Source: an uncultured Thermoleophilia bacterium
Lineage (GTDB): Bacteria; Actinomycetota; Thermoleophilia; UBA2241
DNA length: 64,000 nt
Direction: 5' to 3'
Assembly: GCA_963702475.1 (NCBI GenBank)
Contig: CAVPCT010000005.1
Location: 288,001 to 352,000, forward strand
Position 1 is the first letter of the stretch, and each line of letters opens with the position of its first letter. The position numbers and the translations under genes are program-made. This document shows positions 6,824 to 62,653 of this stretch, one piece after another. The notes under the pieces are model-generated. The model had not been told where the DNA came from and made no database searches. It saw nothing but the letters and a program-made list of their open reading frames with translations.

Positions 6824-7243
6824 ATGACCGCTGAACACCTCATCCTCATCGTCGACGACGACTACGACTTCCTCGAGATGAACCGCTTCATCCTCGAGAA
6901 CGCCGGTTACAGGGTCGTCACCGCCACCAACCCCGCTGAGGCCGCGGCGCGCATCGACGAGGAGGCGCCCGACCTCGTCATCACCGACCTGATGATGACG
7001 AGCATCGACGCCGGCTTCGCGTTCTCGCTCGCGCTCAAGAGCGACCCGCGCACGGCCGCGGTGCCCGTGATCATCTCCACGTCCGTGAGCAGCGCCCTGG
7101 GCCTCGACTTCCACCCGCGGTCCGAGGCGGACCTGGCCAAGATGAACGTGGACGCCTACTTCGACAAGCCTATCGACGCGCAGGCGCTGCTCGCCAAGGT
7201 CGGCGAGCTGCTGTCGCGACGCGCCGAAGGACCCACCCGATGA
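6824..7243 (+). CDS. Single-domain response regulator (receiver)
   Basis: ILIVDDD, PDLVITDLMM, conserved T and KP; no output domain. Confidence 0.9.
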   Translation: MTAEHLILIVDDDYDFLEMNRFILENAGYRVVTATNPAEAAARIDEEAPDLVITDLMMTSIDAGFAFSLALKSDPRTAAVPVIISTSVSSALGLDFHPRSEADLAKMNVDAYFDKPIDAQALLAKVGELLSRRAEGPTR

Positions 7244-10558: not shown

Positions 10559-10812
10559 CGGACTTCGCCCCATCGCGCAGCAAGAACGCCCGCATCACGC
10601 GAGAGAGAAAGGACGGTCGAGCCACCCGAAACGGAACCGTGACGCAAGCCGGACCACCACCAGCGCCCCTTCTCCCCGCCCCCTGTCGCCCCGCCCGGTC
10701 TGCCGGACGGTCGTCGTCACGGAGGCGCGGCGTCGTCGGGCCTGGCACACAAGCCTGGCGCACCTTGGAGGGGGCGCCGTGGGGAAACGCAGAGCACGAA
10801 AGGGAGTGTGCG

Positions 10813-12919: not shown

Positions 12920-12921
12920 GC

Positions 12922-16294: not shown

Positions 16295-16299
16295 CACGC

Positions 16300-17706: not shown

Positions 17707-17767
17707 GCCGAAGCCGGCGCCGACGCACCCGCGACCCGCACAACCTGACCGCACGGGAGGACTCTCC

Positions 17768-18037
17768 ATGAAGGACGACGGCCACATCATCCTCGGTATC
17801 CACGTCACCGAGCGCCTGAAGAACGCCGTAGAGGTGCAGAAGGTGTTCAGCGAGTACGGCTGCAACATCAAGACGCGCATCGGCCTGCACGACGTGGACG
17901 ACAGGGCCTGCTCGCCGAGCGGCGTGGTGCTCATCGAGTTCTTCGGCGCCGCGGCCGAGGCCGACGCCATGACGGCCAAGCTCAACGAGGTCGAGGGCGT
18001 CGAGGTCAAGCAGATGGTGTTCGGGCACGACGCCTGA
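17768..18037 (+). CDS. Small ACT-like hydrogenase-system protein (TM1266-like)
   Basis: VQKVFSEYGCNIKTRIGLH motif, 89 aa, directly after hydG, RBS GGAGG. Confidence 0.75.
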   Translation: MKDDGHIILGIHVTERLKNAVEVQKVFSEYGCNIKTRIGLHDVDDRACSPSGVVLIEFFGAAAEADAMTAKLNEVEGVEVKQMVFGHDA

Positions 18038-18059
18038 GCAGACGGGAGGTCGGGGCACG

Positions 18060-19490: not shown

Positions 19491-19560
19491 CGGGCGCGCG
19501 GGCGACAGGCAAGGGGGCGGCCGGGCGAGACCCGTCCGCGCGGACGACGGAGGTGGCCGC

Positions 19561-20868
19561 ATGGGCCTGATGGACGCACCGAAAGGCATGCGGCTTCACG
19601 TGGGCATCTTCGGCCGCCGCAACGTCGGCAAGTCGAGCCTGCTCAACGCCATCACGCGACAGGAGGTCAGCATCGTCAGCGACTTCGCCGGCACCACGAC
19701 CGACCCTGTCGAGAAGCCCATGGAGCTGCTGCCGCTCGGCCCGGTGCTGTTCATCGACACCGCGGGCATCGACGACGTCGGCGTGCTCGGCGAGCTGCGG
19801 GCGAAGAAGACGACGCAGGTGTTCGACCGCACCGACCTGGGCGTGCTGGTCACGGAGGCCGGCAGCTGGGGCGAGTACGAGGACGGCATCCTCGACGAGT
19901 TCCTCGAGCGCAAGACCCCGGTCGTCGTGGTGTTCAACAAGAGCGACCTGGTGAGCCGGCCGGCGCCTGTGCCCCGCCTGGAGGCGCTCAAGATCAAGCC
20001 GGTGATGACGGCCGCCAGCGAGGGCCGCGGCGTGCTGGACTTCCGCCAGGCGCTGCTGGACGCGGCGCCGCCCGACTTCATCGACAACCCCACCATCCTC
20101 GGCGACCTCGTGAACACCGGCGAGCTCGCCGTGCTGGTGGTGCCCATCGACAAGGAGGCGCCGCGCGGTCGCCTCATCCTGCCGCAGGTGCAGAGCATCC
20201 GCGACCTCATGGACAGCGACGCGATGGCGCTCGTGGTGAAGGAGCGGGAGCTCCGCAACGCCATCGAGCGTCTCAACCGGCCGCCGCGGCTGGTGGTCAC
20301 CGACTCGCAGGCCTTTCTCAAGGTCGCCGCCGACACGCCGCCGGACGTGCCCATGACCAGCTTCAGCATCCTGTTCAGCCGCTTCAAGGGTGACCTGGTC
20401 AGCCAGGTCGAGGGCACGCTCGCCGTCGACGACCTCAGGAGCGGGGCCAACATCCTCATCGCCGAGGCCTGCAGTCACCATCCCATCGCCGAGGACATCG
20501 GCCGCGTCAAGATCCCCCGCTGGCTCACGCAGTACGTGGGCGGCAAGCTCAACATCGAGCACATGCAGGGTCACGACTTTCCCGAGGACCTCTCGCGCTG
20601 GGACCTCGTCGTGCACTGCGGCGGCTGCACCTTCAACCGCCGCGCGATGCTGGGGCGCATCATGCGCTGCCGGCAGCAGGGCGTGCCGATCACCAACTAC
20701 GGCCTGGTGATCGCCTTCAGCCTGGGCATCTTCGACCGCGCCCTGCAGCCGTTCCCGGCCGCGCTCGAGGCCTTGCGCGCGGCGCGGGCCAAGCGGGCCG
20801 GCCACCCGCCGGCGGAGCCGGTCACGGCCGGCCTGCCCGCGAACGCCGCCGTCGACGACCTGTGCTGA
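19561..20868 (+). CDS. hydF: [FeFe]-hydrogenase maturation GTPase HydF
   Basis: GRRNVGKSS P-loop, GTTTDPV, DTAG, NKSD; EACSHH...HCGGC FeS motif. Confidence 0.96.
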   Translation: MGLMDAPKGMRLHVGIFGRRNVGKSSLLNAITRQEVSIVSDFAGTTTDPVEKPMELLPLGPVLFIDTAGIDDVGVLGELRAKKTTQVFDRTDLGVLVTEAGSWGEYEDGILDEFLERKTPVVVVFNKSDLVSRPAPVPRLEALKIKPVMTAASEGRGVLDFRQALLDAAPPDFIDNPTILGDLVNTGELAVLVVPIDKEAPRGRLILPQVQSIRDLMDSDAMALVVKERELRNAIERLNRPPRLVVTDSQAFLKVAADTPPDVPMTSFSILFSRFKGDLVSQVEGTLAVDDLRSGANILIAEACSHHPIAEDIGRVKIPRWLTQYVGGKLNIEHMQGHDFPEDLSRWDLVVHCGGCTFNRRAMLGRIMRCRQQGVPITNYGLVIAFSLGIFDRALQPFPAALEALRAARAKRAGHPPAEPVTAGLPANAAVDDLC

Positions 20869-20917
20869 TCGCCGCCTCCGCACGCGCGGGCGGCGCCCGT
20901 CACGGGACGGGCGGCCG

Positions 20918-22018
20918 ATGAGCGCCGCCTCTCCCCCGCCCCTGGGCGTCGCCGACACGCTGACGCGCGAAGCCATCGAGCACTGGCTGCGCGAGGAGGA
21001 TGAGACGCAGCTCGAGATCCTGTGGGCCGCGGCGGACGAGACGCGGCGCCGCTACGTCGGCGACGCGGTCCACCTCCGCGGCCTCATCGAGCTCAGCAAC
21101 TACTGCGTGCGCGGCTGCACCTACTGCGGCATCCGCGCCGCCAACCGCGGCGTCGAGCGCTACCGCGTCTCCGAGGCCGTCGCGCTCGCCTGCGCTCGCC
21201 GCGCCGTCGACTTCGGCTACGGCACCCTCGTCATGCAGGCCGGCGAGGACTACGGCATCGAGACGGAGTGGCTGAGCCGCGTGCTCCGCCGCATCCGCGG
21301 CGAGACCTCCATCGCCGCCATCACGCTCAGCCTCGGCGAGCGTCCGGATGAGGACCTCGCCGCCTGGCGAGAGGCCGGCGCCGATCGCTACCTCCTGCGC
21401 TTCGAGACCTCCGACGCCGAGCTGTACCACCGCATCCACCCCGACCTGCCGGGACGCATCAGCGACCGCCTCGCCATCCTGCGCCGCCTGCACGAGCTCG
21501 GCTACGAGGCGGGGACGGGCATCATGGTCGGTATCCCCGGGCAGACGTGCCGCAGCATCGCCGACGACATCGAGTTGTTCCGCGGCTTCGACATGGACAT
21601 GATCGGCCTGGGGCCCTACCTGCCCCACCCGGCCACCCCCCTGGGGCAGGAGTTCGAACGGCGGCAGGCCGCAGGCGACTGGCCGCCGGACCAGGCGCCC
21701 AACAGCGAGCTCATGACCTGCAAGGTGCTCGCCCTCACGCGCCTCGCGCGACCCGACGCCAACCTGCCGGCCACCACGGCCCTGTCGCTCGCCGACAAGG
21801 CGGCGGGCCGCGCCCACGGCCTGCAACGCGGCGCCAACGTGGTGATGCCGAACCTCACGCCGGTCGAGGAGCGCCAGAAGTACGAGATCTACCCGGAGAA
21901 GGCGGCCGTGCACGAGACGGCCGAGGCGATCAACGCGAGCCTGATGGCGTTGCTGGACCAGCTCGGCAGGACGGTGGGCGCGGGCGCCGGCGGGCGTGGC
22001 GCCGTGCCCGGCGCCTGA
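20918..22018 (+). CDS. hydE: [FeFe]-hydrogenase radical SAM maturase HydE
   Basis: RGLIELSNYCVRGCTYCG, RYLLRFET, GANVVMPN, YEIYP. Confidence 0.94.
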   Translation: MSAASPPPLGVADTLTREAIEHWLREEDETQLEILWAAADETRRRYVGDAVHLRGLIELSNYCVRGCTYCGIRAANRGVERYRVSEAVALACARRAVDFGYGTLVMQAGEDYGIETEWLSRVLRRIRGETSIAAITLSLGERPDEDLAAWREAGADRYLLRFETSDAELYHRIHPDLPGRISDRLAILRRLHELGYEAGTGIMVGIPGQTCRSIADDIELFRGFDMDMIGLGPYLPHPATPLGQEFERRQAAGDWPPDQAPNSELMTCKVLALTRLARPDANLPATTALSLADKAAGRAHGLQRGANVVMPNLTPVEERQKYEIYPEKAAVHETAEAINASLMALLDQLGRTVGAGAGGRGAVPGA

Positions 22019-33006: not shown

Positions 33007-34431
33007 CTAGGCCATCGGGATGCTCGTGCTCGCGCAGGCCTGAGCAGCCTCGGACCCCGCGGCCTCGCCCGCGGCGGCGGCGCCGGCCGACGACACGCTG
33101 CCGCAGACGGTGCCGGCCAGCAAGAGCGGCACGCCGCCGGGCAGACGGTGACGGGCGACGCCGTCTGCCGCCGGCGGCGCAGCCGCGACGACAGGCTCGA
33201 GCACGAACGCGCCGGCGGCGAGCGCCTGTCTCACCAGCTCGTCGGCCGCGAGGCCGCCCGCGGCCACGCACACGAGGTCGCACGTGAGGCGCACGCACCG
33301 GCGTCCGGCGCCGCCCGGGCCCTCGAGCGCGAGCGTCGCGGCCCGCACCGAGACACGCCCGTGGGCGCGTAAGTCGCGCACACCGCCGAAGACCGGCGCG
33401 GGCGGACCGGTGGCGGCGCGTGCGGACCCGAGCGGCTCGCGTCCGCCGGCGCGCAAGTCGGCGACGGCGACCACCTCCACGCCTCCCGCGGCGAGCTCGG
33501 CGGCCAGCACGTAGCCGTCGTCGCGGTCGGTGACGACGAGGGCTCGACGACGCGCGAGCGCGCCGCAGCGCAGCAGGCGGCGCGCGGCTCCGCAAGCGAG
33601 GACGCCGGGCAGGTCGCCGCCGCGGAACGGCGGGATCCGCTCGTGCACTCCCGTGGCCAGGACCACGGCGGCGGGCTCCACAAGCAGCAGGTCGTCGCCG
33701 GCGACCACGGCGAGGACGCCCTCCTCGTACCAGCCGGCGACCTCCGCGCCGGTCAGCACGCGGAGACCCCCTCCCCGCGCCAGCTCGCCGACGCGCGTCC
33801 GCAGGCGCCGCGGCTCGGGGCCGTCGACGGCGCGCCCGCCGAGGAGCGGGTGACGCTCCACCAGCAGCGTCGGCGCGCCTGCGCCGGCGGCCGCCACGGC
33901 GGCGCTCATGCCGGCGACCCCTCCCCCGGTCACGACCACGCCGCCGCGCACGCGCTCGAGCCGCGCCCGCGCCAGCAGCCGCGCAGCCGCCTCGCGCTCC
34001 GGCAGGGCGGTCTGCCCCGCGGCGCGGGCCAGGACGCGTTCCGCCACGTGCCAGGCGCGCGGCGAACGCCGGAACCACGAGTAGTAGAAGCCGGCGTGCA
34101 GCAGGGGCGCGGCAAGCTCCGCCGCGCGCCCCAGGTCTGCGCCGGCCGACGGCCACCCTCCTTCCCGCTCGACCGCCATGCCCTCGCGCACCGGCGTGAT
34201 GCACGTGCGCACGCCGGGGAGCCCGTCCACGCGCATGGCGCAGCACGAGCACGTCCCGTTACCGCAGCGTACGCCTCGGGGGCGGTGGAACTTCGACGAC
34301 CGCCCGAACACCCGCAGCCCGTGTGCGGTCAGGGCCGCGGCCACGGTCACACCCTCGGGCGCCGTGAGCGTCCGACCTTCGAACCTGAACCGCACCAGCG
34401 GTACGCCGGGGTCGGCGGAGCCGCGCATCAC
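33007..34431 (-). CDS. Sarcosine oxidase alpha / proline dehydrogenase alpha-like subunit (2Fe-2S + FAD)
   Basis: FGRSSKFHRPRGVRCGNGTCSCC, GGGVAG, LATGVHERIPPF. Confidence 0.8.
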   Translation of the reverse strand: MMRGSADPGVPLVRFRFEGRTLTAPEGVTVAAALTAHGLRVFGRSSKFHRPRGVRCGNGTCSCCAMRVDGLPGVRTCITPVREGMAVEREGGWPSAGADLGRAAELAAPLLHAGFYYSWFRRSPRAWHVAERVLARAAGQTALPEREAAARLLARARLERVRGGVVVTGGGVAGMSAAVAAAGAGAPTLLVERHPLLGGRAVDGPEPRRLRTRVGELARGGGLRVLTGAEVAGWYEEGVLAVVAGDDLLLVEPAAVVLATGVHERIPPFRGGDLPGVLACGAARRLLRCGALARRRALVVTDRDDGYVLAAELAAGGVEVVAVADLRAGGREPLGSARAATGPPAPVFGGVRDLRAHGRVSVRAATLALEGPGGAGRRCVRLTCDLVCVAAGGLAADELVRQALAAGAFVLEPVVAAAPPAADGVARHRLPGGVPLLLAGTVCGSVSSAGAAAAGEAAGSEAAQACASTSIPMA

Positions 34432-41128: not shown

Positions 41129-41558
41129 CGGGCCGTCGTCGACGCCGGCGGAGCAGGCGACCACCACCTGCCCGCCCCCGTCACGTCCCGCCCCATCGTG
41201 CTCCACACGCGGCCGGTGGGTGAGAGAGCTTCCTCACCCGCCGGCCGCTTCTTCGTCTGACGGCGCGAGCGCCGAACGGCACCGTTATGCTGCCAAGCGG
41301 GTAGACCCGCTCTCGAAGGTGCTCCTGACATGCGCTGCACGCACGGGAGGCCATGATCCGCCGGGGCACGACGCGGCCACCACTGCCTGGCGGGGAGCCA
41401 CTGGTGAGACCGGCCCGAGGGCCGGTCTCGCTTCGTTCCGGGCGGGCCGGCGGCCGGGAGCTGTCGAGACCGCGGGACGAAGGAGGCGGCGATGGCGGAG
41501 CCTTCCTGCCGGACGTCGGCAGCATCCCAATCCACACGCGAGATCGCAGGGGAAGCAG

Positions 41559-43686: not shown

Positions 43687-45156
43687 TCAGCCGACGCCGT
43701 GCCGGCGGTCGGCCTCCGCGACGATCGCACGCATCTGCGCGGCGACGTCGGGGTCGACGGGCTCGCACCGGTGTGACTCGAGCAGCTCCAGCGCCCGCTC
43801 GCGGGCGCGCTGCGCCAGGTCGGTCGAGCCCTGCGCCTGCCAGTCGTCGCGCACGCGACGGTCGAGCAGGTCGGAGCGGCTGAGGTCGCGCATGTGGCGC
43901 AGCGTGGAGTCGAGGGAGAGGAAGTCGCCGGACGAGCCGACCGCGGCGATGTCGTCCGCGGCGAGGCTCTCTTCGTCGACGCGGACGCCACCCACGGCCA
44001 TCTTGATCATGTGGGCGATCTCGTCGTCCATGACGAGCTGGCCGAAGTCGAAGGCCACGCCCGACTCGATCATCCCCGCACCGTAGATCTGGTTGGCCCC
44101 TGCCAACGCAGCCAGCAAGCCGGTGAGGGTCTTCTCGTGCCCCGCCTGGGCGTCGCCGAGCTTCGCGTCCGTCTACAACCCCGCCACGAAGCTGGGGAGG
44201 CCGTAGCGCCGCGCCAGCTGCGCGACGGCGGCGCTGATCACGGCGAGCTCGGGCGAGCCGACCGCGGCGGTGGCGAGTCTGAGGTCCATCGCGGTGGTGG
44301 ACGACCCGTAGACCATCGGGCACCCTCGCTCGGTGAGCTGCGCCAGCACGATGCTGCCGAGCACCTCGGCGTTGTGCGTCACCAGCGTGCCCGCCAGCGT
44401 GACCGGCGACGAGCCGCCGGCCATGGCCATGCTGACGACGGTGTTGGACATGCCGGAACGCGCCGCCTCGATGATGACCTCGGTGGCGTCGCGCGGCAGC
44501 TGCAGCGGGCTGACGGGGCACACGCCGAAGCCGACGAGCGGGCGGCGACGCAGCTCGTCCTCGCCGCCCGCGAGCACCCGGGCCATCGCCACGATGGCGC
44601 GCACGTCCTCCGCCGTCGTCGCCTCGCTGCCCACCGGCTTGGTGGTCTCGTGGACGGCCTCCTGCCACTTGTGCAGGCTGGCGGTGGCCGCCGGGACGTC
44701 CTCCGCTCCGACCGCCGACTCGTAGGCGTCCATACTGTCCAGGGCGTCGACCAGACGCGCCACCTCGCGCACGTCCCCGATGCCCGGTTTGCGGTACTCC
44801 CCCGTGCGCGGGTCGACGAGCATGATGCCCTCGTCGAAGTTGGAGAAGTGGACGCTGCCGGCCTCGAGCACCACGTCGTCAGCTGGGTCGCGGCCGCACA
44901 GGTGGACGGCTGGCGGACACGCGGCCACCGCGTCCTCAACGATGTGCGGAGGGATGCGCACCGTGCGCGACCCGCGGTCCACGCGACAGCCTCCGTCGGC
45001 GAAGAGGTCGAGCGGCTCGTCGTCCTCCACGAACAGGCCGGTGCGCTCCAGGACCTCGAGCGTGGCGAGGTGGATGTGGTCGATGTCGGCTTCGCTGAGG
45101 ACGTCGAGCCTCAGACCCGGGCTCCCCGGCCGGCCGGACTGCAGCGGGCGTTTCAC
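43687..45156 (-). CDS. mttB: Trimethylamine:corrinoid methyltransferase with in-frame amber (pyrrolysine, codon 328); 489 aa with read-through
   Basis: MttB fold throughout; LPSFVAGL-TAG-TDAKLGDAQAGHEKTLT...AGANQIYGAGM matches the Pyl-containing MttB motif; TAG at 44173-44175; same frame continues to TGA 43687. Confidence 0.93.
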
Positions 45157-45205: not shown

Positions 45206-46711
45206 TCACGCGCGCGCCGCCTCGTCGGCGGCGGCCACGAGGCGACGCAGCTCGCGCTGCGCGTCGTCGCCGAGCGGCTCCGGCCGGTAGTGGTCCAAGA
45301 TGTCCCCGGCGCGCTCGCGCGCAACCTCGACGGCGTCGCGGAAGTGGCGCCCGTCGGCGGCGACCTCCTGCGTGATGGCGCGCACCACCGAGGTACGCAT
45401 GTGCCGCCGCGTGTGCACGTGGCCGAGGAAGTTGCCGCCCGGGCCGACCGCGGCGATGGCCTCGAGAGCGAGCGCCTCCTCGTCGGCCGCGACGTCGAGG
45501 AACGCCGCGCGGGCGCGGTGGTAGAGGTCGTCGTCCAGGATCAGGTCCTCGGGCGCGAACACCGTGAAGGTGCCGTGCAGACCGATACCGGTGTAGGTCT
45601 CGCAGCCGTCCAGCGGGAGCTGCAGGAGCTGCGAGGCCTGTTCCACGCCGTGCTGCCAGGTGCCGGGCTCGGTGGCGTCGGTGCCGCCGAAGGCGCCCAG
45701 CGCCGGCAGACCGAAGGCGTGCAGCAGCTCGGTCGCCAGGAAGCGGCAGCGGTCCTCGAGCGGCGCGGACAGCGTGAGCGCGCTCCGCGGGTCGGCGTAG
45801 CTGCTCATGATCGACCCCCACACCGGCGCGCCCGGCGCCGCCAGCTGGTGGAGCACGGCGGCGGCCACGATCTCGGCGGCGCCCACCACCAGGGCGCCGG
45901 CCGGCGTGGCCGGGGCCGTGGTGCCCAGGGTCGGCATGGTCACGTAGCACACGGGGATGCCGGCCTCCGCGAACACCAGTCCGGCGCCGGTGCCGTCGTC
46001 GTCGAGGACGAGCGGCGACACCGTCCCGATGAGGTCGCTGAGCGCTGAGGGAGCGCCGACGCCGCGTGCGTCAGCGACCACAGCGGCCATCTCCACGGCG
46101 CAGCGCGCCAGCGTCTCTCCCTGCACCATGCCCATCAGGTGTTTGGTCGTGTTGTTCCAGCCCGCCTCGAGCTCGTGCACCTGCGCGGCGGGGCCGCAGT
46201 CGCCGGCGCCCACAGTGGGCCACCAGAACGCGATGGACCCGAGGTAGTCCTGCATGCGCGTGACGCCGGCGAGGTCGGCCTTGGTGGACGGGCGCGGCTC
46301 GCCGGTGTGCCGGTCGACGACGTGGGTGCCGCTGCCGTCGGTGGTGCCGTAGGTCTCGCCGGAGGCGAGATCCAGGTCGGTGAGGCCGTCGCGCGAGCCC
46401 AGCACGAAGGTGCGCGGGGCGAGCGCCAGCGACTCCTGGACGAGCCGGCGCGGCAGCCGCACGAGGCCGGAGGCCTCGTCCACGTCCGCGCCGGCCTTCG
46501 CGAACAGCTTGAGGCCCTTGCGCGAGCGGCACTTGACGCCGGTGCCGGCGAGGACGGCGAACGTCGCGTCCAGGTACGGCACCAGCCTCTCCGCGTCGTG
46601 CACCTGCAGGCGGAACTCGGACCGCAGGGGCGCCAGCGGCTGCCTGCGCAGCCGCTGGGCGCCCGGCGCCGTCACGCCCGACGGTCCGGCGTCGGTCGCT
46701 CCGGCGCTCAC
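45206..46711 (-). CDS. MttB-superfamily methyltransferase (non-pyrrolysine)
   Basis: AGADVDE..GLVRLP...LALAPRTFVL, VSPL, LGTTAPATPAGALV; AFGGTDA at the Pyl-equivalent site. Confidence 0.88.
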   Translation of the reverse strand: MSAGATDAGPSGVTAPGAQRLRRQPLAPLRSEFRLQVHDAERLVPYLDATFAVLAGTGVKCRSRKGLKLFAKAGADVDEASGLVRLPRRLVQESLALAPRTFVLGSRDGLTDLDLASGETYGTTDGSGTHVVDRHTGEPRPSTKADLAGVTRMQDYLGSIAFWWPTVGAGDCGPAAQVHELEAGWNNTTKHLMGMVQGETLARCAVEMAAVVADARGVGAPSALSDLIGTVSPLVLDDDGTGAGLVFAEAGIPVCYVTMPTLGTTAPATPAGALVVGAAEIVAAAVLHQLAAPGAPVWGSIMSSYADPRSALTLSAPLEDRCRFLATELLHAFGLPALGAFGGTDATEPGTWQHGVEQASQLLQLPLDGCETYTGIGLHGTFTVFAPEDLILDDDLYHRARAAFLDVAADEEALALEAIAAVGPGGNFLGHVHTRRHMRTSVVRAITQEVAADGRHFRDAVEVARERAGDILDHYRPEPLGDDAQRELRRLVAAADEAARA

Positions 46712-48120
46712 CGCGGCACCGCCCCTCTGCGCGTCCTGACCAGGGAGCTGCGCTCACGGAACCGGTCCACGCAGTTGATGGGCAGGTCGAGAAGGTCGGC
46801 GATGTTCATCTTGGCCTCCATCGCCGTCGCGGCACCCGGGAACGGGGCCTCGGAGTCGATGATCCTGCCGAGGCCCAGCTCGCCGCGGACCTCCTGCATC
46901 GCCACGCAGTCGGAGAGGTCGGCGATGCTCACGCCGAGCCTCTCGGCCACCACACGCTTCGCCTCCGGGAGCCGCAGTCCCCGCGTCATCTGCATGCGCG
47001 CCACCAGGTCTCCGGCGGCGCGTAGCCCGTTCATCCCGCAGGCTGTCGCGTGAGCGCTGGGCATCCCGAAGATGTCGCCTGTACCCACCTACAACCCGTC
47101 CACGCGCAGCAGATCGACGAAGGCGCGCCCCACACGCGACACGGCGTCCACGGGCGGGCAGACGCTCATGGGCACGCCGCCGACCCCCATCCCGGCGTTG
47201 ACGTGCACGGGGATGCTCGCTGCGGCCACGCAGGGCTTGAGGATCGTGGCCGCGCGGGCCACGTTCCAGGCCACGGAGTGCGTGGTGTTGACGTTGACGC
47301 AGGGGCCGAAGATGGTGGCGCCGGCCTGCTCGACCACGCGCAGCTGGTCGTGAGGCCACAGGCCGGCCAGGCGCACGCCGTCGAACTCGAGCCGCCCGTG
47401 CATCCCCAGCACGAACTCGGAGGCCATGCCGACCTCGATGCTCATGGTGGGGAAGTCGCGGCGCAGCGCGCGCACCACCTCGAGCACGGCCAGGAACTCG
47501 GCGTCGCCGGCCGCGCCGCTGGTGTCGAAGTCCAGACCGTCGGCGCCGGCCTCCCAGAGCCTCTCGGCGACGTGGCGCATGTCGGCGGTCGCGTAGGCGA
47601 CCGCCGCCTCCTGCGCCTCACGCGCCTCGTCGGCACGGCCCTGCGGCAACAGCTCGGACCAGTTCGGCACGGGGCCGTCCGGCATCGAGTACCGCCCGAG
47701 GTCGGCCTGCGACCCGTAGTGCAGCGGCATCGTGAGCCGGTGCTGGGCGTCGTGCATGGCCTGGGCCTCGCCGGCGACCACTTTGGCGGCGGCGTTGTAG
47801 CAGTAGTCCTGGTGGAACAGCTCGCCGGAGTCGGCGCCGAGCATCTGCTCGTAGATCACAAGGCCGTCGATGCGCTCGTTCTGCTGCGTGCCGGTGCCGT
47901 CGTAGCTCAGGACGACCTCCTCGCCGATGTCCACGGCCGAGAAGCGCGCGGGAGAGGCGAAGATGTCGAGCAGGTGGTCGAGCTCCGCGGCGTCGAGCGG
48001 CTCGACCTTGGCCCGTTTCGCGCCGAGCGCCGAGCCCTCTTCGAGGTCGGCGCGCAGCTCGGAGCGCGTGAGGTGGACGAGCGCGCCGTCTCCCATCCTC
48101 GTCGGGATCTTCACTTCCAT
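46708..48120 (-). CDS. mtbB: Dimethylamine:corrinoid methyltransferase with in-frame amber (pyrrolysine, codon 344); 470 aa with read-through
   Basis: TRMGDG, FDTSGAAGDAEF, GMASEFVLGMHG, GMGVGGVPM, VDGL-TAG-VGTGDIFGM...RAAGDLVARMQ...EAK; TAG at 47089-47091; downstream TGA overlaps next GTG start. Confidence 0.93.
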
Positions 48121-48192: not shown

Positions 48193-48257
48193 CAAGAGCG
48201 GACGCAAGGTTTGCCCAAGAATCGGCGGTGGCGGCGCGCGATCCAGGCCCGGATACT
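48193..48257 (+). promoter_or_regulatory. Candidate operator AGGTTTGCCCAAGAATCGGC (48207-48226) with GATACT -10-like box
   Basis: Exact 20-nt copy at 50982-51001; CAAG repeats at 48193, 48205 and 48216; GATACT 25 nt downstream. Confidence 0.7.
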
Positions 48258-48306
48258 CCGTCTCAACGACTGTGCCGGCCGCGGCCGGCGGACGAAAGGG
48301 GCGCCC

Positions 48307-49725
48307 GTGGCGCGTGCGCGCATCCAGTACCTGTCGCCTCGGGAGAGCGACTTCATCCACGAGCAGACGCTGGAGCTCCTGGCGCGAGTGGGCGTCGCCT
48401 ACAACTCACCCAGGGCGCTCGACGTGCTGGAGGCAGCCGGCGTGGAGGTCGACCGGGAGAAGCTCACCGCGAAGCTCGGCTGGGAGGTGATCGAAGAGGC
48501 GCTCCGCACCGTGCCCGGACGAGTGCTGCTGGCCGGGCGGCTCCCCGAGCACGACCGCGTGCTCGGCGACGGCCGGCTGGTCACCACGAGTGACGGCATG
48601 ACCACGTACGTGCTGGACGAGCCCGGCGGCGCCCGCCGCGAGGGCACCGCCGCCGACCTGGCCACCGTCACCCGGCTCTGCGACGCGCTCGACGAGATCG
48701 ACGTGGTGTGGCCCTCGCCGCAGGCCGGCGACGTGGACGCCTGGATGATGCCGCTGGTGATGCAGGCGACGGTGGTGCGCAACACCGGCAAGCACGTGCA
48801 GGACGAGGTACGCACCCCGGAGATGGTCGAGCCGATCCTGGCGGTGTACGAGGCGGCCGCGGGCGCGACGCTGCGCGAGCGCCCGGTGTTCTCGGTGACG
48901 AACTGCACGATCGCGCCGCTGCAACACGACCGCGAGATGACGGAGGCCGGCCTGGAGCTTGCGGCACGCGGCGTGCCCATCTTCGTGCTGCCCATGCCCC
49001 AGGCCGGTACGACAGGGCCCATGACCCTGCTCGGCACCTGCATCGTGCACATGGCCGAGCTGCTCTCGGCGGTCGTGCTCTACCAGCTGGCCGTGCCCGG
49101 CTGCCCGCTCATCGCCGGGGTCGGGGCCGCCGTGGCCGACATGCGCAGCGGCGGCTACATCTCGGCGGCGCCCGAGATCGGCCTCATCAACCTGATCTGC
49201 CTCACGATGAGCAAGCGCTACGGGCTGCTCACGCAAGCCACGGGGATCTCGCCCGACGCCAAGGTGAGCGACTTCCAGGCGGGCTCGGAGGGCGGCATGA
49301 CGGGGCTCGTGGCCGCCCTCGCCGGCGCCGACTCGCTCATCGCCGCCGGCAGTCTGGACGGCGTACAGTGCTCGAGCCTCGCCAAGCTGGTGCTGGACGA
49401 CGACCAGCTCGGCGCCATCCGCCGCTACCTGCGCGAGGACCCCATCGACAAGACGGCGGCGCTCATGGACGACATCCTCGAGGTCGGCATCGGCGGCCAC
49501 TTCCTCGCGCGCCGCAGCACCCGCCACGCCGCGCGCACGGAGGTCTGGCGGCCGCGCGTGTTCCAGCGCGGGAGCTACGCCGAGCTGGCCGGTCGGTCGG
49601 TGGTGCAGGCGGCCGCCGAGCGCGCCGAGGAGCTGCTGGCGACGCACGACGCGCCGCCGCTCGCGCCCGCGGCCGAGGCGGCGATCGCCGAGGTACTGGC
49701 GGCCTGGGAGGCGCGCCGGCCCTGA
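48307..49725 (+). CDS. MttB-superfamily methyltransferase (non-pyrrolysine)
   Basis: IHEQTLELLARVGV, IAPLQHD, AGTTGPMTLLG, DMRSG...APE, TGISPDAK, GIGGHFL. Confidence 0.9.
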   Translation: MARARIQYLSPRESDFIHEQTLELLARVGVAYNSPRALDVLEAAGVEVDREKLTAKLGWEVIEEALRTVPGRVLLAGRLPEHDRVLGDGRLVTTSDGMTTYVLDEPGGARREGTAADLATVTRLCDALDEIDVVWPSPQAGDVDAWMMPLVMQATVVRNTGKHVQDEVRTPEMVEPILAVYEAAAGATLRERPVFSVTNCTIAPLQHDREMTEAGLELAARGVPIFVLPMPQAGTTGPMTLLGTCIVHMAELLSAVVLYQLAVPGCPLIAGVGAAVADMRSGGYISAAPEIGLINLICLTMSKRYGLLTQATGISPDAKVSDFQAGSEGGMTGLVAALAGADSLIAAGSLDGVQCSSLAKLVLDDDQLGAIRRYLREDPIDKTAALMDDILEVGIGGHFLARRSTRHAARTEVWRPRVFQRGSYAELAGRSVVQAAAERAEELLATHDAPPLAPAAEAAIAEVLAAWEARRP

Positions 49726-49815: not shown

Positions 49816-50898
49816 TCAGCCCAGGCGCAGTAGCGCCTGGGCAGCCGCGGCGGCGACCAGACGGAGCACGCGCTCCTCCTGGCCGCCCGCCGCACGTGGC
49901 AGGGCGACGCGCAGTACCAGTTTCCCCACGGGCGTGACCTCCTCGGCCTCCACCAGCCCGGCCGCGTCCGCGGTGTCGCGCCACCTCCCGCGCGCGACCG
50001 CTCCTTCGTCGCGCGCGCGGCCGGTCAGGTCGTCCCACTCCGCCTCCGCCGACGCGCCACCGAGGGCGCGGCACGCGAGGGCGGCGGCGGCGGCCAGCAC
50101 CTCGTCCACCGTGCGGCCGGCCACGAGCTCCGGGAGGCCGGCCACGACCGCGTCCACCGCGCTCGCCAGCAGCCGGCCGTCGGCGTCGCTGCGCGCGAGG
50201 CGGGCGAAGGTGCCCGCGTTCTGCAGCGCCACCGCGGCGAGGCCCGCGAGGGCGCGCGCGAGGCGCAGCTCCTGGTGCGTGAAACGACGCTCCCTGAGGT
50301 GGTCGTACACCTCGAGCGTGCCGACCGTGCGCCCCGCGAACACGAGCGGCACCACGAGGAGCGTCTTGTCGCCCCACTGGCGCATGATGGCGGTCTCCGC
50401 CGGGTCCGCCGCCGGGTCGCTCACCGTGATGACCCCGAGCTCCTGCACCTCGACCAGGCGGTGCGTGAAGGGGAAGCCCTTCAGCGAGTACGGGTTCCAG
50501 TCGGCTATGCGCTGCCCGTTGCGGTCGTAGTCCGCCAGCACCGACACGACGTCCGTCTCGGGGTCGTACTCCGACACGGCGCAGAAGTGACAGTCCAGCG
50601 TGGCCGTGACGCGCCGTGCTATCTCGCCGAGCAGCTCGGGCAGGTCGAGCCGGCTGGTGAGCGCCACGGAGGCGTCCACGAGGGTGTCGACCTCGCGCTC
50701 GCGGGCGAGGCGCGCGGCGGCCTGGTCGCTCGCCGCGACGAGCGTGGCGAGCTCGTCCACGTCCTCGCGCCGCATGCGCCGGTGACCGCCGGCCGTGCGG
50801 ATGCAGGGGAGGAAGCCCGAGTCGGTCCAGCGACGGATGGTGTCGGGCGAGACGCCCAGCCGGCGGGCCGCGAGCTGCACGCTCAGGTACACGGACAT
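49816..50898 (-). CDS. Excisionase/BldC-like (MerR-type HTH_17) DNA-binding protein with a GAF domain
   Basis: YLSVQLAARRLGVSPDTIRRWTDSGFLPCIRTAGGHRR; GAF region LTSRLDLPELL...LLVVPLVFAGRTVGTL...F...ELRLARALA. Confidence 0.88.
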   Translation of the reverse strand: MSVYLSVQLAARRLGVSPDTIRRWTDSGFLPCIRTAGGHRRMRREDVDELATLVAASDQAAARLAREREVDTLVDASVALTSRLDLPELLGEIARRVTATLDCHFCAVSEYDPETDVVSVLADYDRNGQRIADWNPYSLKGFPFTHRLVEVQELGVITVSDPAADPAETAIMRQWGDKTLLVVPLVFAGRTVGTLEVYDHLRERRFTHQELRLARALAGLAAVALQNAGTFARLARSDADGRLLASAVDAVVAGLPELVAGRTVDEVLAAAAALACRALGGASAEAEWDDLTGRARDEGAVARGRWRDTADAAGLVEAEEVTPVGKLVLRVALPRAAGGQEERVLRLVAAAAAQALLRLG

Positions 50899-51066: not shown

Positions 51067-52587
51067 GTGCACGTGGAACTGACGACCGCGAGCCAGACCG
51101 CCGCCCGGAGCCAGGGCCTCAAGCGCACCAGCGTCCGCCTTCTCACGGTGTTCTTCATGATCTACATCCTCGTCTCGGGCGGGTCGTTCGGCATAGAGGA
51201 CATGGTGTCATGGTCCGGCCCGGGCCTCACGATCCTGCTGCTCATGGTGCTGCCGATCGTCTGGAGCTTGCCCATGGCGCTGGTCGCGAGCGAGTTGGGG
51301 TCGGCGCTGCCCGGCGAGGGCGGCTTCTACATCTGGGCGCGGCGCGGGCTCGGCGACTTCTGGGGATTCCAGACCGCCTGGTGGTGGACCCTCTCCATCT
51401 TCGTGGACTCGTCGGTCTACGTCGTCCTGGCCGTCGGCTACCTGCAGAACTGGCTGGGCTTCGGACAGCTCTGGTTCTACGTCACCTGCTGGGCGATCAT
51501 CGCCGTGTTCACACTCGTCAACGTCTTCGGGGTCAAGCTGGTGGCACTCAGTTCGACCGTCTTCTCGGTGCTGATCATCGCGCCGTTCCTCGTGCTGATC
51601 GTGGTCGGCCTGGCGAAGTGGCAGTTCAACCCCCTGACGCCGGTGACGCCGCCGGGCGTACCGTTCTTCGGCACCAACGGCGCCCTCGGCCTCGGGCTGG
51701 CCATCGGCGTGTGGATGTACTCCGGCTACGAGTCCATGTCCACGCTTTCGGGAGAGATCCGCGATCCCCAGCGCGTGATCCCGCGCGCGCTCCTGCTCGC
51801 GGTGCCGTTCATCATCGCCATGTACGTGCTGCCCACGGTGGCCGCCCTGGCCGGCTACGGCCAGTGGGACATGTGGGCGACAGACGCCGGCGACGGCTAC
51901 GTCTCGTTCGTGGAGATCGGCAGGGCCCTCGGCGGCTCCGCGCTCGGCGTCGCGCTGCTGGCGTCGGCCCTGCTCGGCAACCTGGCGCTGTACCTGGACT
52001 ACCTGGCCTCGGGCGCGCGCCCACTCTTCGCACTCTCTACCGATCGCCTCTTCCCCGCCGCGGCGTCTCGCGTCAGCAGGCGGTTCGGTACGCCGGTCGT
52101 GGCCATCCTGCTGATGGCCGGGCTGAACGCCGTTCTCATCGTCGGACCGTTCCGGAACCTGGTGGTGATCGACGTGATCCTGTTCACGGCGTCGTACGTG
52201 CTGATCTTCATCGCCGCGGTCGCTCTGCGCGTGAAGGAGCCCGGGCTAAGAAGGCCGTTCCGCGTGCCGCTGGGGACAAAGGGCATGGCGCTCATGGTGG
52301 CACCGCCCATCGCCATCGTGCTCTTCACGATCTACGTGAACGCCATCGACCGCAGCACGGAGATCCTCGGCGTCACCGGCTTCCGGGTGCTGGGCATCGA
52401 CGTGGGCTGGTACGGCATCGGCGGCTTCCTCGCGCTGGCCTCCGGACCGGTGTGCTACCTGGCCTTCCGCCGCGCGTTCGGCGGACCGGCCACGCCGGCG
52501 GCGCAAGCCGGCGACGACGAGCTGGCGGCGCTCGCGGCGGCCGCCGAAGACGGGGACGACGAGGCCGGCCCAGGAGCGCTCGCATGA
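51067..52587 (+). CDS. APC-family amino acid/amine permease
   Basis: About 12 hydrophobic helices; SGGSFGIED, SELGSALPGEGGFYIW, YSGYE, GEIRDP, RPFRVP; start may be 51073. Confidence 0.9.
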   Translation: MHVELTTASQTAARSQGLKRTSVRLLTVFFMIYILVSGGSFGIEDMVSWSGPGLTILLLMVLPIVWSLPMALVASELGSALPGEGGFYIWARRGLGDFWGFQTAWWWTLSIFVDSSVYVVLAVGYLQNWLGFGQLWFYVTCWAIIAVFTLVNVFGVKLVALSSTVFSVLIIAPFLVLIVVGLAKWQFNPLTPVTPPGVPFFGTNGALGLGLAIGVWMYSGYESMSTLSGEIRDPQRVIPRALLLAVPFIIAMYVLPTVAALAGYGQWDMWATDAGDGYVSFVEIGRALGGSALGVALLASALLGNLALYLDYLASGARPLFALSTDRLFPAAASRVSRRFGTPVVAILLMAGLNAVLIVGPFRNLVVIDVILFTASYVLIFIAAVALRVKEPGLRRPFRVPLGTKGMALMVAPPIAIVLFTIYVNAIDRSTEILGVTGFRVLGIDVGWYGIGGFLALASGPVCYLAFRRAFGGPATPAAQAGDDELAALAAAAEDGDDEAGPGALA

Positions 52588-54023
52588 GGGCGCGGCTCGA
52601 GATCCTGACCGCCGGGGAGCGCGCCCAGGTCCACGAGCGCACCCTGGGGGTGCTCGAGCGGACGGGGATGCGCTGCGACTCGATCGAGGGTCGCCGGATC
52701 CTCGCCGACGCCGGCGCCCGGGTGGACGAACACACCGGCGTCGTGCGCTTTCCGGCGGTGCTCGTCGAGCAGGCGCTGGCGCAGGCGCCGAAGGCGTTCA
52801 CGCTCGGAGGCCGCCGTCCCGGCTGGAGGTTCGCCCTCTGTGAGGGCGAACAGACCCTGCTCGCCGACGGCGGCGCCACCGCCGTGTTCGACAGCGCGAC
52901 CGGCGAGCGACGGCCACCGACCCGCGGCGACTGGCTGGCGGCCACGCGCATCCTCGACGCGCTCGACGAGGTCGGCCTCTACTGGTGCCCGACGGACTAC
53001 CCGGCGGACTACGAGCGCGCCGGCGGCTTCGTGCGCTACTACGCGGACGCGTTCGCCACCTTCGGCAAGCACGTACAGGACTCGTTCGGCACGCCCGAGC
53101 TGGCGCCGTGGCTCGGCGAGGTCCTCGAGGCGGTGTTCGGCGGCCGCGCGCGCGTGCGCGACCTGCGGCCGCTCTCGTTCCTCATCACGCCGGCCTCTCC
53201 GCTCACCATCGAGCGCAACTACACGGACTCGTGGCTCGCGCTGCGGGACTACCGGTTGCCGGTCGCCATCATGCCGATGCCGCTGCAGGGGGCGACGGCG
53301 CCGGGCAGCCGGCTGGGCACCCTGCTGGCCGCCAACTGCGAGACCCTGGGCACGCTCTGTCTGGTGCAGGCCGCGGCGCCGGGCACGCCCGTCATCTACG
53401 CGCCGGTCGTGGCCACGATGGACCCGCGCACCGGGCTGTACGCCGCCGGCGCCGTGGAGCACGCCGTGCTCTGCGCCGCCGGCACGGAGATGGCCCGGTT
53501 CTACGGCCTGCCGGCCGAATCCTCGGGCTTCTGCACGCAGACCCACGAGCCTGACCTGCAGACCGCCTGGGAGAAGGCCAACGGCGCCCTGCTCGTCACG
53601 CTCTCCGACCCCGACATCCTGGTCGGGCCGGGGCTGCTGGCGGGCGCGACGGTGCTGTGCCTCGAGCAGCTCGTGCTCGACGTGGCGGAGTGGCGCCTGG
53701 CACGCCAGGCGCAGACGGGCATCCCGGTGCGCGACGACCTCTGGCTCGACGACGTGCTCGACCGCGTCGGGGCCGGCGGCTCGTTCCTCTCCGCGCGCTC
53801 CACGCGTGCCAACGCGCGCGGGGGCGAGGAGTGGCGCCTCGGCGACCTCGGCTTCCACGGCAGCCACGACGCGTGGCGCGCGGCCGGCGCGCCGACGACG
53901 CTGCAGTACGCGCGAGAACGTGTCACGGAGATCCTCGCCGCGCACCAGCCGGTGCCCTTCGACGACGACGTCACCGCTGCGCTCGCGGAGCTCCAACGGC
54001 GGGCCGACGCAGCCGACGCGTGA
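52584..54023 (+). CDS. MttB-superfamily methyltransferase (non-pyrrolysine)
   Basis: VHERTLGVLERTG, GVVRFP, ASPL, GATAP, DPRTG, EMARFYGLP, QTAWEK; ATGA overlap with the permease. Confidence 0.9.
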   Translation: MRARLEILTAGERAQVHERTLGVLERTGMRCDSIEGRRILADAGARVDEHTGVVRFPAVLVEQALAQAPKAFTLGGRRPGWRFALCEGEQTLLADGGATAVFDSATGERRPPTRGDWLAATRILDALDEVGLYWCPTDYPADYERAGGFVRYYADAFATFGKHVQDSFGTPELAPWLGEVLEAVFGGRARVRDLRPLSFLITPASPLTIERNYTDSWLALRDYRLPVAIMPMPLQGATAPGSRLGTLLAANCETLGTLCLVQAAAPGTPVIYAPVVATMDPRTGLYAAGAVEHAVLCAAGTEMARFYGLPAESSGFCTQTHEPDLQTAWEKANGALLVTLSDPDILVGPGLLAGATVLCLEQLVLDVAEWRLARQAQTGIPVRDDLWLDDVLDRVGAGGSFLSARSTRANARGGEEWRLGDLGFHGSHDAWRAAGAPTTLQYARERVTEILAAHQPVPFDDDVTAALAELQRRADAADA

Positions 54024-59878: not shown

Positions 59879-61072
59879 TCACTCGTACCGCAGGGCCATG
59901 GTCGGCTCTACCGAGGCGGCCTGCACGGCCGGGCCGAGCCCGGCCAGGATGCCGACCGCGGCGGCCACGACCAGGGCGAGCGTCACCGTGAGCGCCGAGA
60001 ACGCCGGCGCCACGTCAAGGGCGGAACCGCCGATGTACGCGGCGCCGATCCCGATGCCCAGACCCAGCACGCCGCCGATGATGCTCGTCACCACGGCGTA
60101 GATCAGGAACTCCATGACGATGTCGCGCCGCGTCGCCCCGACGGCGCGCCGCACACCGATCTCGCGGGTACGCTCGCGCACGGTCACCAGCATGACGTTG
60201 GCCACGCCGATGCCGCCCACCACGAGGCTGATGGCGGCGATCGCCGCCATCAGCCCCGTCAGCGTCTTCGTGCTCGACGACACCGCCGAGGCGATGGAGC
60301 TGGCGTTGACGACCTGGAAGTCGTTCTGGTCTGTCGTCGCCAGACCGCGCTCCGAACGCAGCGTGCTCTCCACGGCCGACGTGAAGGTGTCCACCGCGTC
60401 CGCGTCGGCCTGCACGCGGATGGTCGAGATCTCCGGATGGTAGGAGACCAGCGTGCCCTCGATGGCGGTGAGCGGCACGATGATGCTGTCGTCCACAGAC
60501 GCGAAGGCGATGCCGCCCTGCGAGTCGAGCACGCCGACCACGGTGAACGGCTGGCCGCCCACCTTGACCGTCTCACCGAGCGCGCGCAGCGGCGTGAGCT
60601 CCAGGTTCTCGCAGGTCGTCGACCCGAGCACCGCCACCGGAAGCGCGTTGTCCACCTGGAACCGGCTGAAGAAGGCACCCGCGACCACGGTCAGGTGGTT
60701 GATGGTCCTGAAGCCGGGAAAGGTGCCGGTCACGGTGGCGTTGACGGTGGTCGACCCGGACGTCACGGAGGCGTTGGTGTCCACCGTGTAGACGGTCTTC
60801 TTCACGCCGGGCGTGTCGTCGATCGCCGCGAGGTCGCTCGACGAGAGCCCCGACGAGCTCGACGAGAACCTGCTGGCCTGCACCGTGATGGTGTCCGTAC
60901 CGAACGCGTTGAACCGGTCCTCGACGGCCTTGGTGGAACCGCCGCCGATGGCAGTCAGCGCCACCACCGCACCCACGCCGATGACGATGCCGAGAATGGT
61001 CAGCACCGCGCGCAGCGGGTTGGCCCGCAGGCTCGAGAAGGCGAGACGCAGCGACTCGAGGAAGACGATCAC
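59879..61072 (-). CDS. MacB-like ABC transporter permease
   Basis: RAVLTILGIVIGV, ISLVVGGIGVANVMLVTVRERTREIGVRRAVGA, ALRYE. Confidence 0.93.
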   Translation of the reverse strand: MIVFLESLRLAFSSLRANPLRAVLTILGIVIGVGAVVALTAIGGGSTKAVEDRFNAFGTDTITVQASRFSSSSSGLSSSDLAAIDDTPGVKKTVYTVDTNASVTSGSTTVNATVTGTFPGFRTINHLTVVAGAFFSRFQVDNALPVAVLGSTTCENLELTPLRALGETVKVGGQPFTVVGVLDSQGGIAFASVDDSIIVPLTAIEGTLVSYHPEISTIRVQADADAVDTFTSAVESTLRSERGLATTDQNDFQVVNASSIASAVSSSTKTLTGLMAAIAAISLVVGGIGVANVMLVTVRERTREIGVRRAVGATRRDIVMEFLIYAVVTSIIGGVLGLGIGIGAAYIGGSALDVAPAFSALTVTLALVVAAAVGILAGLGPAVQAASVEPTMALRYE

Positions 61073-62653
61073 TGACTACCGCCCTGCAGCACCGGCGGCG
61101 TCCCCTGCGGCATGCCACCCGCCGGCGGCCCGCCGGCGCCGTTGAGCACGCTGCCGAGGCCGGAGCGCTCCGAGCGGCTCGTCGACGTGCCCTCGACGTA
61201 CTGTCCGGTGACGACGGTCTCGCCCTCGGCGAGACCGCTCGTGACTCTCCGTGTACGACGAGGTGGCCATGCCGGTCTCCACCTGGCGGACGACCGGCAC
61301 GCCGTTCTGCATCACCCGGACATAGGACGTGCTCGAGGTGCCCGTCACCGCGCTGGTCGGCACGAGCAGCACGTCGCTGTGCTCCTCGAGCACGATCTCG
61401 AGCGTGCCGGTCATCCCGGAGCGGGCCACGGAGGGCAGCTCCTCAGGGCGTATGGTGATGGTGTACTGGGTGGAGCCCGAGGACGAGCTTCCCAGGGACG
61501 ACGAGGAGGAGGACGCCGGCTCGTCGGAGATCGCGGTGATGACCCCGGTGAACGCCTGGTCGGTGTACCCGTCGATGGTCATCTGCGCCTTCTGCCCGAC
61601 CTTCAGCTGCCCGAGGTCGCTCTGGCCCACCAGGGCCTGTGCTTCGAGAGCTGTCGGGGCGCTGATCGTCGCGAGCTGAGTGCCGCCGCCGACACGGCTG
61701 CCCAGCGTCACACCCCACGAGGAGAGCGTCGACCCGTCGGGCATCCACACGAAGCGATCCACGTCCACGACGCCGGTCTTGCTCATGCCGTTGTCGGCCT
61801 GCCACTTCTTGTACGCGCTCTCGGTGGCCGCGGTGAACCTCCCGTTGACCTTGCCGTCGTAGTAGCCCTCGTCCCTGAGGGAGCGCTGGAGCACGGCGAC
61901 GTTGACGCGCTGGTCGCCCGACGAGAGGTCGGTGGAGAGGTCCTTCCACAACGGGGCGGAGCTGACGAAGGCGTACACGCCCTTGCCCGACACGGTGAGG
62001 AGCCGCTGCAGCGTGTGCGGCATGCCGCCCTCCTTGGCCACCAGGCGTGTGACGATGCCGCTGAGGCCGGACGATACCGACGTGGACGTGGCGGCGCTGC
62101 CGGTGGAGGCCGCCGCGGAGGACGCGCCTCCACTGCTCGCCGTCATGCCGCCGCTCACGCCGCCGGAGAACGAGCCCCCGGAGGACTGGCTCGGCGAGGG
62201 GACCGGCACCGAGCTCCCGCTCGGCGACGGCCTCACCGTCGGAGTGGCGGTGGGCGTGGGCGTCGCGGTGGGCTCCACGCTGGCCGACGAGCTCGGGCTC
62301 GGCGAGCTCACGTCGAACGACGCGAAGAGCGTCGCGGCCCCGGCCGTCCCCGAGGAGCTGGTCGCGGCGCCCGTCGCACTCCCGCCGTCGGCGGAGCTGT
62401 CGGAGCTCGACGAGCTCCCCGAGAGCGAGATGGCGGAGACGCCGCCGTCGGAGGCCAGCGTGAAGTCGGACTCCACCGTCTGTGAGATCGTCCCCGCAGT
62501 CACCGTCGACGTGAGATACCTCACGGCGCCCGTGGTGTCACGGCCGACGAACCACCACACGCCGCCGCCCGCGGCCGCAGCCAGGGCGACGACGACCAGG
62601 GCCAGGAGCCACCAGCGCTTGCGCTTCCTCTTGCCTGCTGTCGCCGCACTCAC
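61069..62653 (-). CDS. Membrane-fusion (HlyD/MacA-like) adaptor with a peptidoglycan-binding domain; +1 frameshift near 61247
   Basis: N-terminal TM; VAVLQRSL...GYY.G...G.FT..T..A.KKWQ (PG-binding); LKVGQKA, VPTSAV; corrected frame gives EVTSGLAEGETVV and a TGA overlapping the permease GTG. Confidence 0.8.

Follow-up and report, generated by a model that had tools for sequence, protein, structure and literature searches.

This analysis concerns mtbB, an amber-interrupted methyltransferase gene in a 64-kb stretch of bacterial DNA (contig CAVPCT010000005.1, positions 288,001 to 352,000), which as a whole we call the window. On the minus strand, translation from an ATG at 48120–48118, preceded about 10 bases upstream by the Shine–Dalgarno-like stretch GGAGGGGA, yields 343 sense codons ending in ...VDGL before an in-frame TAG at 47091–47089. 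Past this triplet the same frame runs on for 126 sense codons, opening with VGTGDIFGM..., to a TGA at 46710–46708. The GTG at 46711–46709 is the start of the next open reading frame (ORF; 45206–46711) and overlaps the mtbB stop as GTGA; an ATGA overlap likewise follows mtbB in L002, a related locus labelled Thermoleophilia. An earlier inspection of the bare letters (the sequence-only reading) had reported the same coordinates and peptides, which the minus-strand translation reproduced exactly, and had argued that the GTGA coupling makes sense only if the ribosome reaches position 46708. The overlap itself is there; it is compatible with translational coupling as one possible reading, but does not require it and is no proof. 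The features of the gene are as follows, with L001 and L002 denoting the two related loci described below.

46708–48120, minus strand: mtbB, dimethylamine:corrinoid methyltransferase, coding sequence read through the TAG; 470 amino acids (aa), putative pyrrolysine codon 344 (translation, PF09505, TIGR02368).
47089–47091, minus strand: in-frame TAG at the pyrrolysine column of the family (profile halves, PYLIS_2, L001 and L002 alignment columns, ends of homologues).
46992–47091, minus strand: match to Rfam RF02509 PYLIS_2 (mtbB), 100 nucleotides (nt) from the UAG; score 63.2 bits (gathering score 36), spanning model positions 1–100.
46708–46711, minus strand: GTGA, in which the mtbB stop overlaps the start of the following gene (sequence; ATGA equivalent in L002).

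The window has a G+C content of 71.0%, and its two strands together contain 326 TAG, 33 TAA and 1369 TGA trinucleotides. Because stops are rare at this composition, an open frame past a TAG is by itself weak evidence and long open frames mean little, so that the argument must rest on homology and conservation. The read-through protein matched Pfam PF09505 (Dimeth_PyL) over residues 6–456 (profile positions 4–462 of 463; 535.6 bits, E = 1.1e-160) and scored 433.4 bits against the NCBIfam equivalog TIGR02368, above the cut-off of 369.1. Each half alone fell below that cut-off: the part before the TAG matched positions 6–355 of TIGR02368 with 311 bits and the part after it positions 357–464 of 466 with 101.5 bits (E = 4.2e-29), the two matches abutting at 355 and 357 and leaving one profile position for the TAG. 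Comparison with Methanosarcina MtbB was made through these family profiles rather than pairwise; it showed the window protein matching the family end to end (470 aa against a 466-position profile) and its gene carrying a single UAG at the pyrrolysine column, followed by the O-x-G-x-GD pattern (O, pyrrolysine). In Methanosarcina barkeri MtbB the pyrrolysine is residue 356. A PDB sequence search with MtbB found no relative and no solved MtbB structure. At the RNA level, positions 1–3 of the PYLIS_2 model, with the consensus UAG, fall on the window TAG, and the model consensus translates as UAG-I-G-V-G-D where the window has V-G-T-G-D after its TAG.

The same interruption was found throughout the relatives. 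A full-length database search returned 1316 homologues, the best 120 of which were all 327–365 aa long and covered 70–73% of the query; every one of the 29 aligned from these best 120 ends in DG[LY] at query residue 343. A scan of a genome collection with six exact 8-residue patterns, a method of short reach, yielded L002 (JBKQWK010000043.1; metagenome-assembled genome (MAG) labelled Thermoleophilia bacterium) and L001 (MAG labelled uncultured delta proteobacterium), whose MtbB proteins are 79% and 59% identical to that of the window. In both loci the mtbB TAG occupies the same alignment column as the window TAG, the PYLIS_2 match begins on it, and the read-through protein exceeds the TIGR02368 cut-off (425.5 bits for L002, 418.7 for L001). 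L001 also contains a second mtbB copy (7866–9017, plus strand), adjoining a tRNA-Thr, which keeps the TAG, ends about 28 codons later and scores 316.6 bits, below the cut-off; it is likely a decayed copy.

Searched alone against 1.84 billion representatives, the C part matched 187 proteins at E ≤ 0.001. Among the best 150 of these, 146 are at most 278 aa long and are separately called tail ORFs, a predominance that we ascribe to the family-wide in-frame stop, and four (P0160, P0273, P0206 and P0219) are at least 427 aa long. P0160 is an uninterrupted MtbB-family member of 463 aa with 35% identity and Trp at the pyrrolysine column, which suggests a non-pyrrolysine branch of the family; P0273 has several stretches where similarity is lost, as in a frameshifted assembly, and P0206 and P0219 match the C part in 12 and 9 short stretches. 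A word-indexed search with the C part returned four proteins of 258–823 aa, of which P0122 and P0125 drop in similarity around the TAG column in a frameshift-like manner. As judged from these alignments, the stop in mtbB is a property of the family and not an accident.

Between the window and L002, the ratio of nonsynonymous to synonymous substitution rates (dN/dS) was 0.108 over the 126 post-TAG codons and 0.212 over the 343 pre-TAG codons, as against 2.0 and 2.4 in the two alternative frames of the post-TAG bases. The comparison with L001 (0.65 and 0.61; off-frames 0.92 and 1.48) is too diverged and composition-biased to be informative and was not used. By this measure the 126 codons past the TAG are under purifying selection and hence translated, because such conservation is not expected of a remnant lying beyond a genuine stop. 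The sequence-only reading had taken the two ORFs for one MtbB-type gene with its TAG at the pyrrolysine position of the methanogen enzyme. The identity is borne out by the full-length PF09505 and TIGR02368 matches, the latter above the equivalog cut-off; the unity of the two ORFs by the fact that only the read-through protein passes that cut-off and by the selection on the tail; and the position by the profile gap at 355/357, the UAG of PYLIS_2 and the TAGs of the relatives. In the context that it had quoted, DG-x-O-x-G-x-GD, the downstream O-x-G-x-GD agrees with the PYLIS_2 consensus and with the V-G-T-G-D of the window.

We read 46708–48120 as a single mtbB gene in which codon 344, a UAG, is most likely decoded as pyrrolysine by a tRNA(Pyl) and a pyrrolysyl-tRNA synthetase (PylRS) encoded elsewhere, and assign this reading a probability of about 0.82. 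It is the family, the selection on the tail and the literature from which we infer that pyrrolysine is the residue inserted. The amber-suppressor tRNA(Pyl), charged by PylRS, would insert pyrrolysine at codon 344 and give a 470-residue enzyme whose active site contains pyrrolysine. If the archaeal system is a guide, the pyrroline imine would bind and activate dimethylamine, from which a methyl group would be transferred to Co(I) in a cognate corrinoid protein. A further transfer by a second methyltransferase, in a bacterium presumably to tetrahydrofolate, would follow, and the step from trimethylamine to dimethylamine may be carried out by mttB of the same operon, a second amber gene located 1.5 kb downstream of mtbB. 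The first two steps of this mechanism draw on the archaeal enzyme chemistry, which is described as needing the pyrroline ring (PMC9842639). Compared with Methanosarcina mtbB, the window gene resides in a bacterial, high-G+C host, where the final methyl acceptor presumably cannot be coenzyme M; an mtbC corrinoid gene is missing next to it, and the 64 kb contain no pyl genes.

Several results weigh against the decoding of this UAG as pyrrolysine. The searches for pyl and partner genes cover the 64-kb window only, and in it neither ARAGORN nor Rfam, run at its gathering threshold and again with E values up to 1, detected a CUA-anticodon tRNA; the five tRNAs present are all ordinary. Three anticodon-loop-like [CT]TCTA[AG] sites were inspected by eye as candidates for pylT, and none was tRNA-like. 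In L002, upstream of mtbB, ARAGORN calls a 95-nt 'tRNA-Asp (atc)' at 210–304 on the minus strand where Rfam finds no tRNA, probably a false call. Pfam searches of the 128 ORF translations of the window gave no match for PylS-, PylC- or PylD-like proteins, and two candidates for PylB, both radical-SAM/BATS genes, were dismissed, since the gene at 16258–17706 scores 533 bits as HydG and that at 20918–22018 scores 301 bits as HydE, each far above the cut-off, with only 86 and 105 bits, respectively, against the PylB model (cut-off 348). Neither a B12-binding corrinoid protein nor a RamA-type activase nor a methylcorrinoid methyltransferase was found among the same 128 translations or in the L001 and L002 loci; such partners may be encoded elsewhere in the genome. 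TAG also still serves as a terminator: the 46 family-supported genes of the window end in TGA (42), TAA (2) or TAG (2), so that UAG is ambiguous and not globally reassigned.

The RNA element and the structural model add to these counterpoints. Helix 1 of the PYLIS_2 match contains five non-canonical pairs, and the 100-nt region folds at −44 kcal/mol with a z-score of −1.22, 18 of 200 shuffled sequences folding as well or better; a functional hairpin thus has no statistical support, and the match reflects mostly coding-sequence conservation. Only a G+C-rich distal hairpin, about 70–95 nt past the UAG, recurs in all three loci (window 46997–47022, minus strand; L002 about 2211–2236; L001 about 10754–10779). 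By eye, one of its pairs is changed on both sides, synonymously, between the window and L001, the three sequences being too few for an analysis of covariation. An AlphaFold2 model of MtbB, made from a 36-row alignment, was mediocre, with a mean predicted local distance difference test (pLDDT) score of 69 and a predicted template modelling (pTM) score of 0.75; it places residue 344 in a strand (342–346) directly adjoining a segment (346–367) with pLDDT below 50. Foldseek comparison of the model with the PDB gave three weak matches at E ≤ 0.001, with template modelling (TM) scores of 0.28–0.42, all TIM-barrel enzymes (two homocysteine methyltransferases and a dihydropteroate synthase). The model is compatible with the expected TIM-barrel fold and proves no more, and it is too weak for placing the pyrrolysine in an active site. 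The call of the host, finally, is based on one Thermoleophilia-labelled MAG with 79% MtbB identity and a similar gene cluster.

Other explanations were weighed. The TAG might be a true stop in a truncated gene, with no pyrrolysine system in the organism and the 126 codons surviving as the untranslated remnant of a horizontally acquired mtbB; the lack of pyl genes, of a CUA tRNA and of a corrinoid protein in the window would fit such a history, and the second mtbB copy of L001 shows that decay happens. We nevertheless hold it to be very unlikely, for the post-TAG dN/dS of 0.108 lies below that of the N part with both off-frames at or above 2, the C part still matches the profile nearly to its last position, both the window and L002 retain the overlap between the mtbB stop and the following start, and the second amber gene, mttB, is equally intact. 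Translation through the UAG might alternatively deliver a canonical residue, by another suppressor or by near-cognate decoding, and produce a non-pyrrolysine MtbB. P0160, with its Trp at the critical column, indicates that a pyrrolysine-free form of the fold exists, but the TAG is kept across lineages down to 59% protein identity with no replacement by a sense codon, a published list of PylSc includes entries from MAGs of Thermoleophilia and other Actinobacteria (PMC9630628), and a canonical residue would lack the pyrroline ring that the chemistry is reported to need (PMC9842639), which leaves this explanation a long shot. Should there be no pyl cassette at all, a slender prospect in our estimate, both UAGs would be decoded by a different suppressor, as a canonical residue, or with pyrrolysine imported from neighbours and charged by an enzyme other than PylRS, and the locus would represent a second natural way of reading the amber codons of mtbB and mttB.

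The chance that a sense codon was turned into TAG by faulty sequencing or assembly is practically negligible: the same TAG stands in two independent assemblies, all 29 aligned homologues stop there, and in P0122 and P0125, two database proteins without a break at the column, similarity is lost locally as in frameshifted sequences. Rather unlikely is the possibility that the gene is as described and that the host belongs to another high-G+C anaerobic lineage, the methyltransferase cluster having been transferred horizontally. A single relative is labelled Thermoleophilia and the next is labelled delta proteobacterium, the window contains no rRNA or ribosomal-protein marker, its G+C content of 71.0% compares with 65.9% for L002, and pyl systems are described as patchy among bacteria (Guo et al., PMC9630628). 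On the other hand, the window MtbB is 79% identical to that of L002, L002 shares the pairing of mtbB(UAG) and mttB(UAG) with non-pyrrolysine MttB paralogues, and Actinobacteriota MAGs are reported to express pyrrolysine-type mtbB and mttB (PMC10805028).

To return to the main reading, the organism carrying mtbB probably belongs to the Thermoleophilia (Actinomycetota). The sequence-only reading had proposed an actinobacterial host and held that such a host would be notable; the proposal gains plausibility from L002, with its 79% identity and similar cluster, and stays indirect in that it depends on the label of one relative. The novelty was overstated, as the trait has already been reported in the phylum. 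Guo et al. (2022) recorded PylRS in 81 bacterial genomes, two of them from Actinobacteria (PMC9630628), and the supplement of that paper lists PylSc from 'Actinobacteria_bacterium_ADurb.BinA094' and 'Thermoleophilia_bacterium'. Ellenbogen et al. (2023) described Actinobacteriota MAGs expressing pyrrolysine-encoding mttB and mtbB, the same phylum-level setting and gene types as in the window; these genes were recognised by truncation, and the terms 'pylS' and 'pylT' do not occur in the main text (PMC10805028). Our search of the literature on pyrrolysine in Thermoleophilia, Actinobacteriota or Actinomycetota found nothing beyond these two papers. Pyrrolysine-using bacteria have also been described from the human gut (Kivenson and Giovannoni, 2020; PMC7593587). 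With the pyrrolysine users among Firmicutes and Deltaproteobacteria the window shares amber-interrupted methylamine methyltransferase genes and the continued use of TAG as the end of ordinary genes (2 of 46 in the window); it differs in phylum and in that no pyl cassette is seen within it. The window mtbB is a well-preserved further case of a trait that is rare in the phylum and already in print.

On the minus strand, mtbB leads a set of genes in the order mtbB(UAG), non-pyrrolysine MttB paralogue, mttB(UAG), and this set lies beside further genes with family support.

45206–46711, minus strand: non-pyrrolysine MttB-superfamily methyltransferase, 501 aa, without an in-frame stop (PF06253, E = 2.3e-50; TIGR02369, 253.5 bits against a cut-off of 525).
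43687–45156, minus strand: mttB, pyrrolysine-type trimethylamine methyltransferase, TAG at 44173–44175 (TIGR02369, 658.2 bits against a cut-off of 525).
48211–49725, plus strand: divergently transcribed non-pyrrolysine MttB-superfamily methyltransferase (PF06253, E = 5.5e-75; TIGR02369, 332 bits, below the cut-off).
49816–50898, minus strand: regulator with a MerR-type helix-turn-helix and a GAF domain (Pfam GAF_2, HTH_17, MerR_1).
51067–52587, plus strand: APC-family amino acid/amine permease (Pfam AA_permease_2, E = 4.8e-45; NCBIfam models for amino acid and ethanolamine permeases matched only below their cut-offs).
52584–54023, plus strand: third non-pyrrolysine MttB-superfamily methyltransferase, start ATG 52584 or GTG 52452 (PF06253, E = 3.3e-60; TIGR02369, 303.5 bits, below the cut-off).

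The set together with the flanking paralogues, regulator and permease constitutes a methylated-amine demethylation locus, in which the MerR/GAF protein is a candidate regulator of the cluster and the APC permease a candidate substrate importer; the three non-pyrrolysine MttB paralogues are probably quaternary-amine methyltransferases. The amber gene mttB, for which GTG 45156 was chosen among the candidate start codons, went unmentioned in the sequence-only reading. Its region 44076–44175 matches Rfam PYLIS_3 with 70.3 bits, the match beginning on the TAG, and its protein aligns with the M. barkeri MttB chain 7xcm_A over residues 12–485 (E = 8.6e-115), where the TAG coincides with residue 334 and Tyr364 is retained. 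In M. barkeri MttB (PDB 7xcl, 7xcm and 7xcn), residue 334 is Pyl334 and the tyrosine is reported as fully conserved (PMC9842639). The counterpart of this archaeal enzyme is the neighbouring mttB and not the window mtbB, and MtbB is described in the same source as having no significant sequence homology to MttB.

The locus in L002 consists of mtbB(UAG), mttB(UAG) and then two non-pyrrolysine MttB paralogues. It resembles that of the window in combining the two amber genes with non-pyrrolysine paralogues and in the stop/start overlap after mtbB, and differs in that mttB directly follows mtbB, where the window has a non-pyrrolysine paralogue in between, and in a TetR/BetI-like gene upstream. Genes for three [FeFe]-hydrogenase proteins and for the maturases HydG, HydF and HydE lie in the left half of the window, which marks the organism as an anaerobe. 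One of the three proteins, encoded at 7240–9291 (plus strand), carries HisKA and HATPase_c domains in addition to an [FeFe]-hydrogenase large-subunit domain and is a sensory hydrogenase–histidine kinase fusion; it lies among response regulators and the two further [FeFe] hydrogenases (4907–6682 and 12196–14859), with HydG, HydF and HydE at 16258–22018.

Under the standard code, mtbB is split into a 343-aa fragment and a short orphan ORF, as has happened to its relatives in protein collections; read correctly, the locus would assign to the organism the capacity to demethylate trimethylamine and dimethylamine. Together with the three non-pyrrolysine MttB paralogues and the [FeFe] hydrogenases, it suggests an anaerobic actinobacterial methylotroph, which could compete with methylotrophic methanogens for methylamines. 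Predicted expansion of the genetic code is rare in Actinomycetota, which account for 2 of the 81 bacterial genomes with PylRS counted by Guo et al. (PMC9630628). A 64-kb stretch in which two amber genes are intact can serve as a useful reference. The window mtbB opens no new question, since both the phenomenon and its presence in the phylum have been published.

Elsewhere in the window, the sarcosine-oxidase-alpha-like gene at 33007–34431 (minus strand) ends in TAG, the next in-frame stop being 34 codons on; with its soxB-like, SO_alpha_A3 and saccharopine-dehydrogenase-like neighbours it makes up an amine or opine oxidation cluster. An HlyD-like gene at 61076–62653 (minus strand) also ends in TAG, and a MacB/FtsX-type permease gene at 59879–61072 (minus strand) follows in frame without an intervening stop, so that read-through of the UAG would fuse the two proteins. 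A c-di-GMP-II-GAG riboswitch aptamer was found at 41337–41424 on the plus strand (56.8 bits against a gathering score of 40), with family-supported genes for BNR/TIG-domain proteins nearby on the opposite strand.

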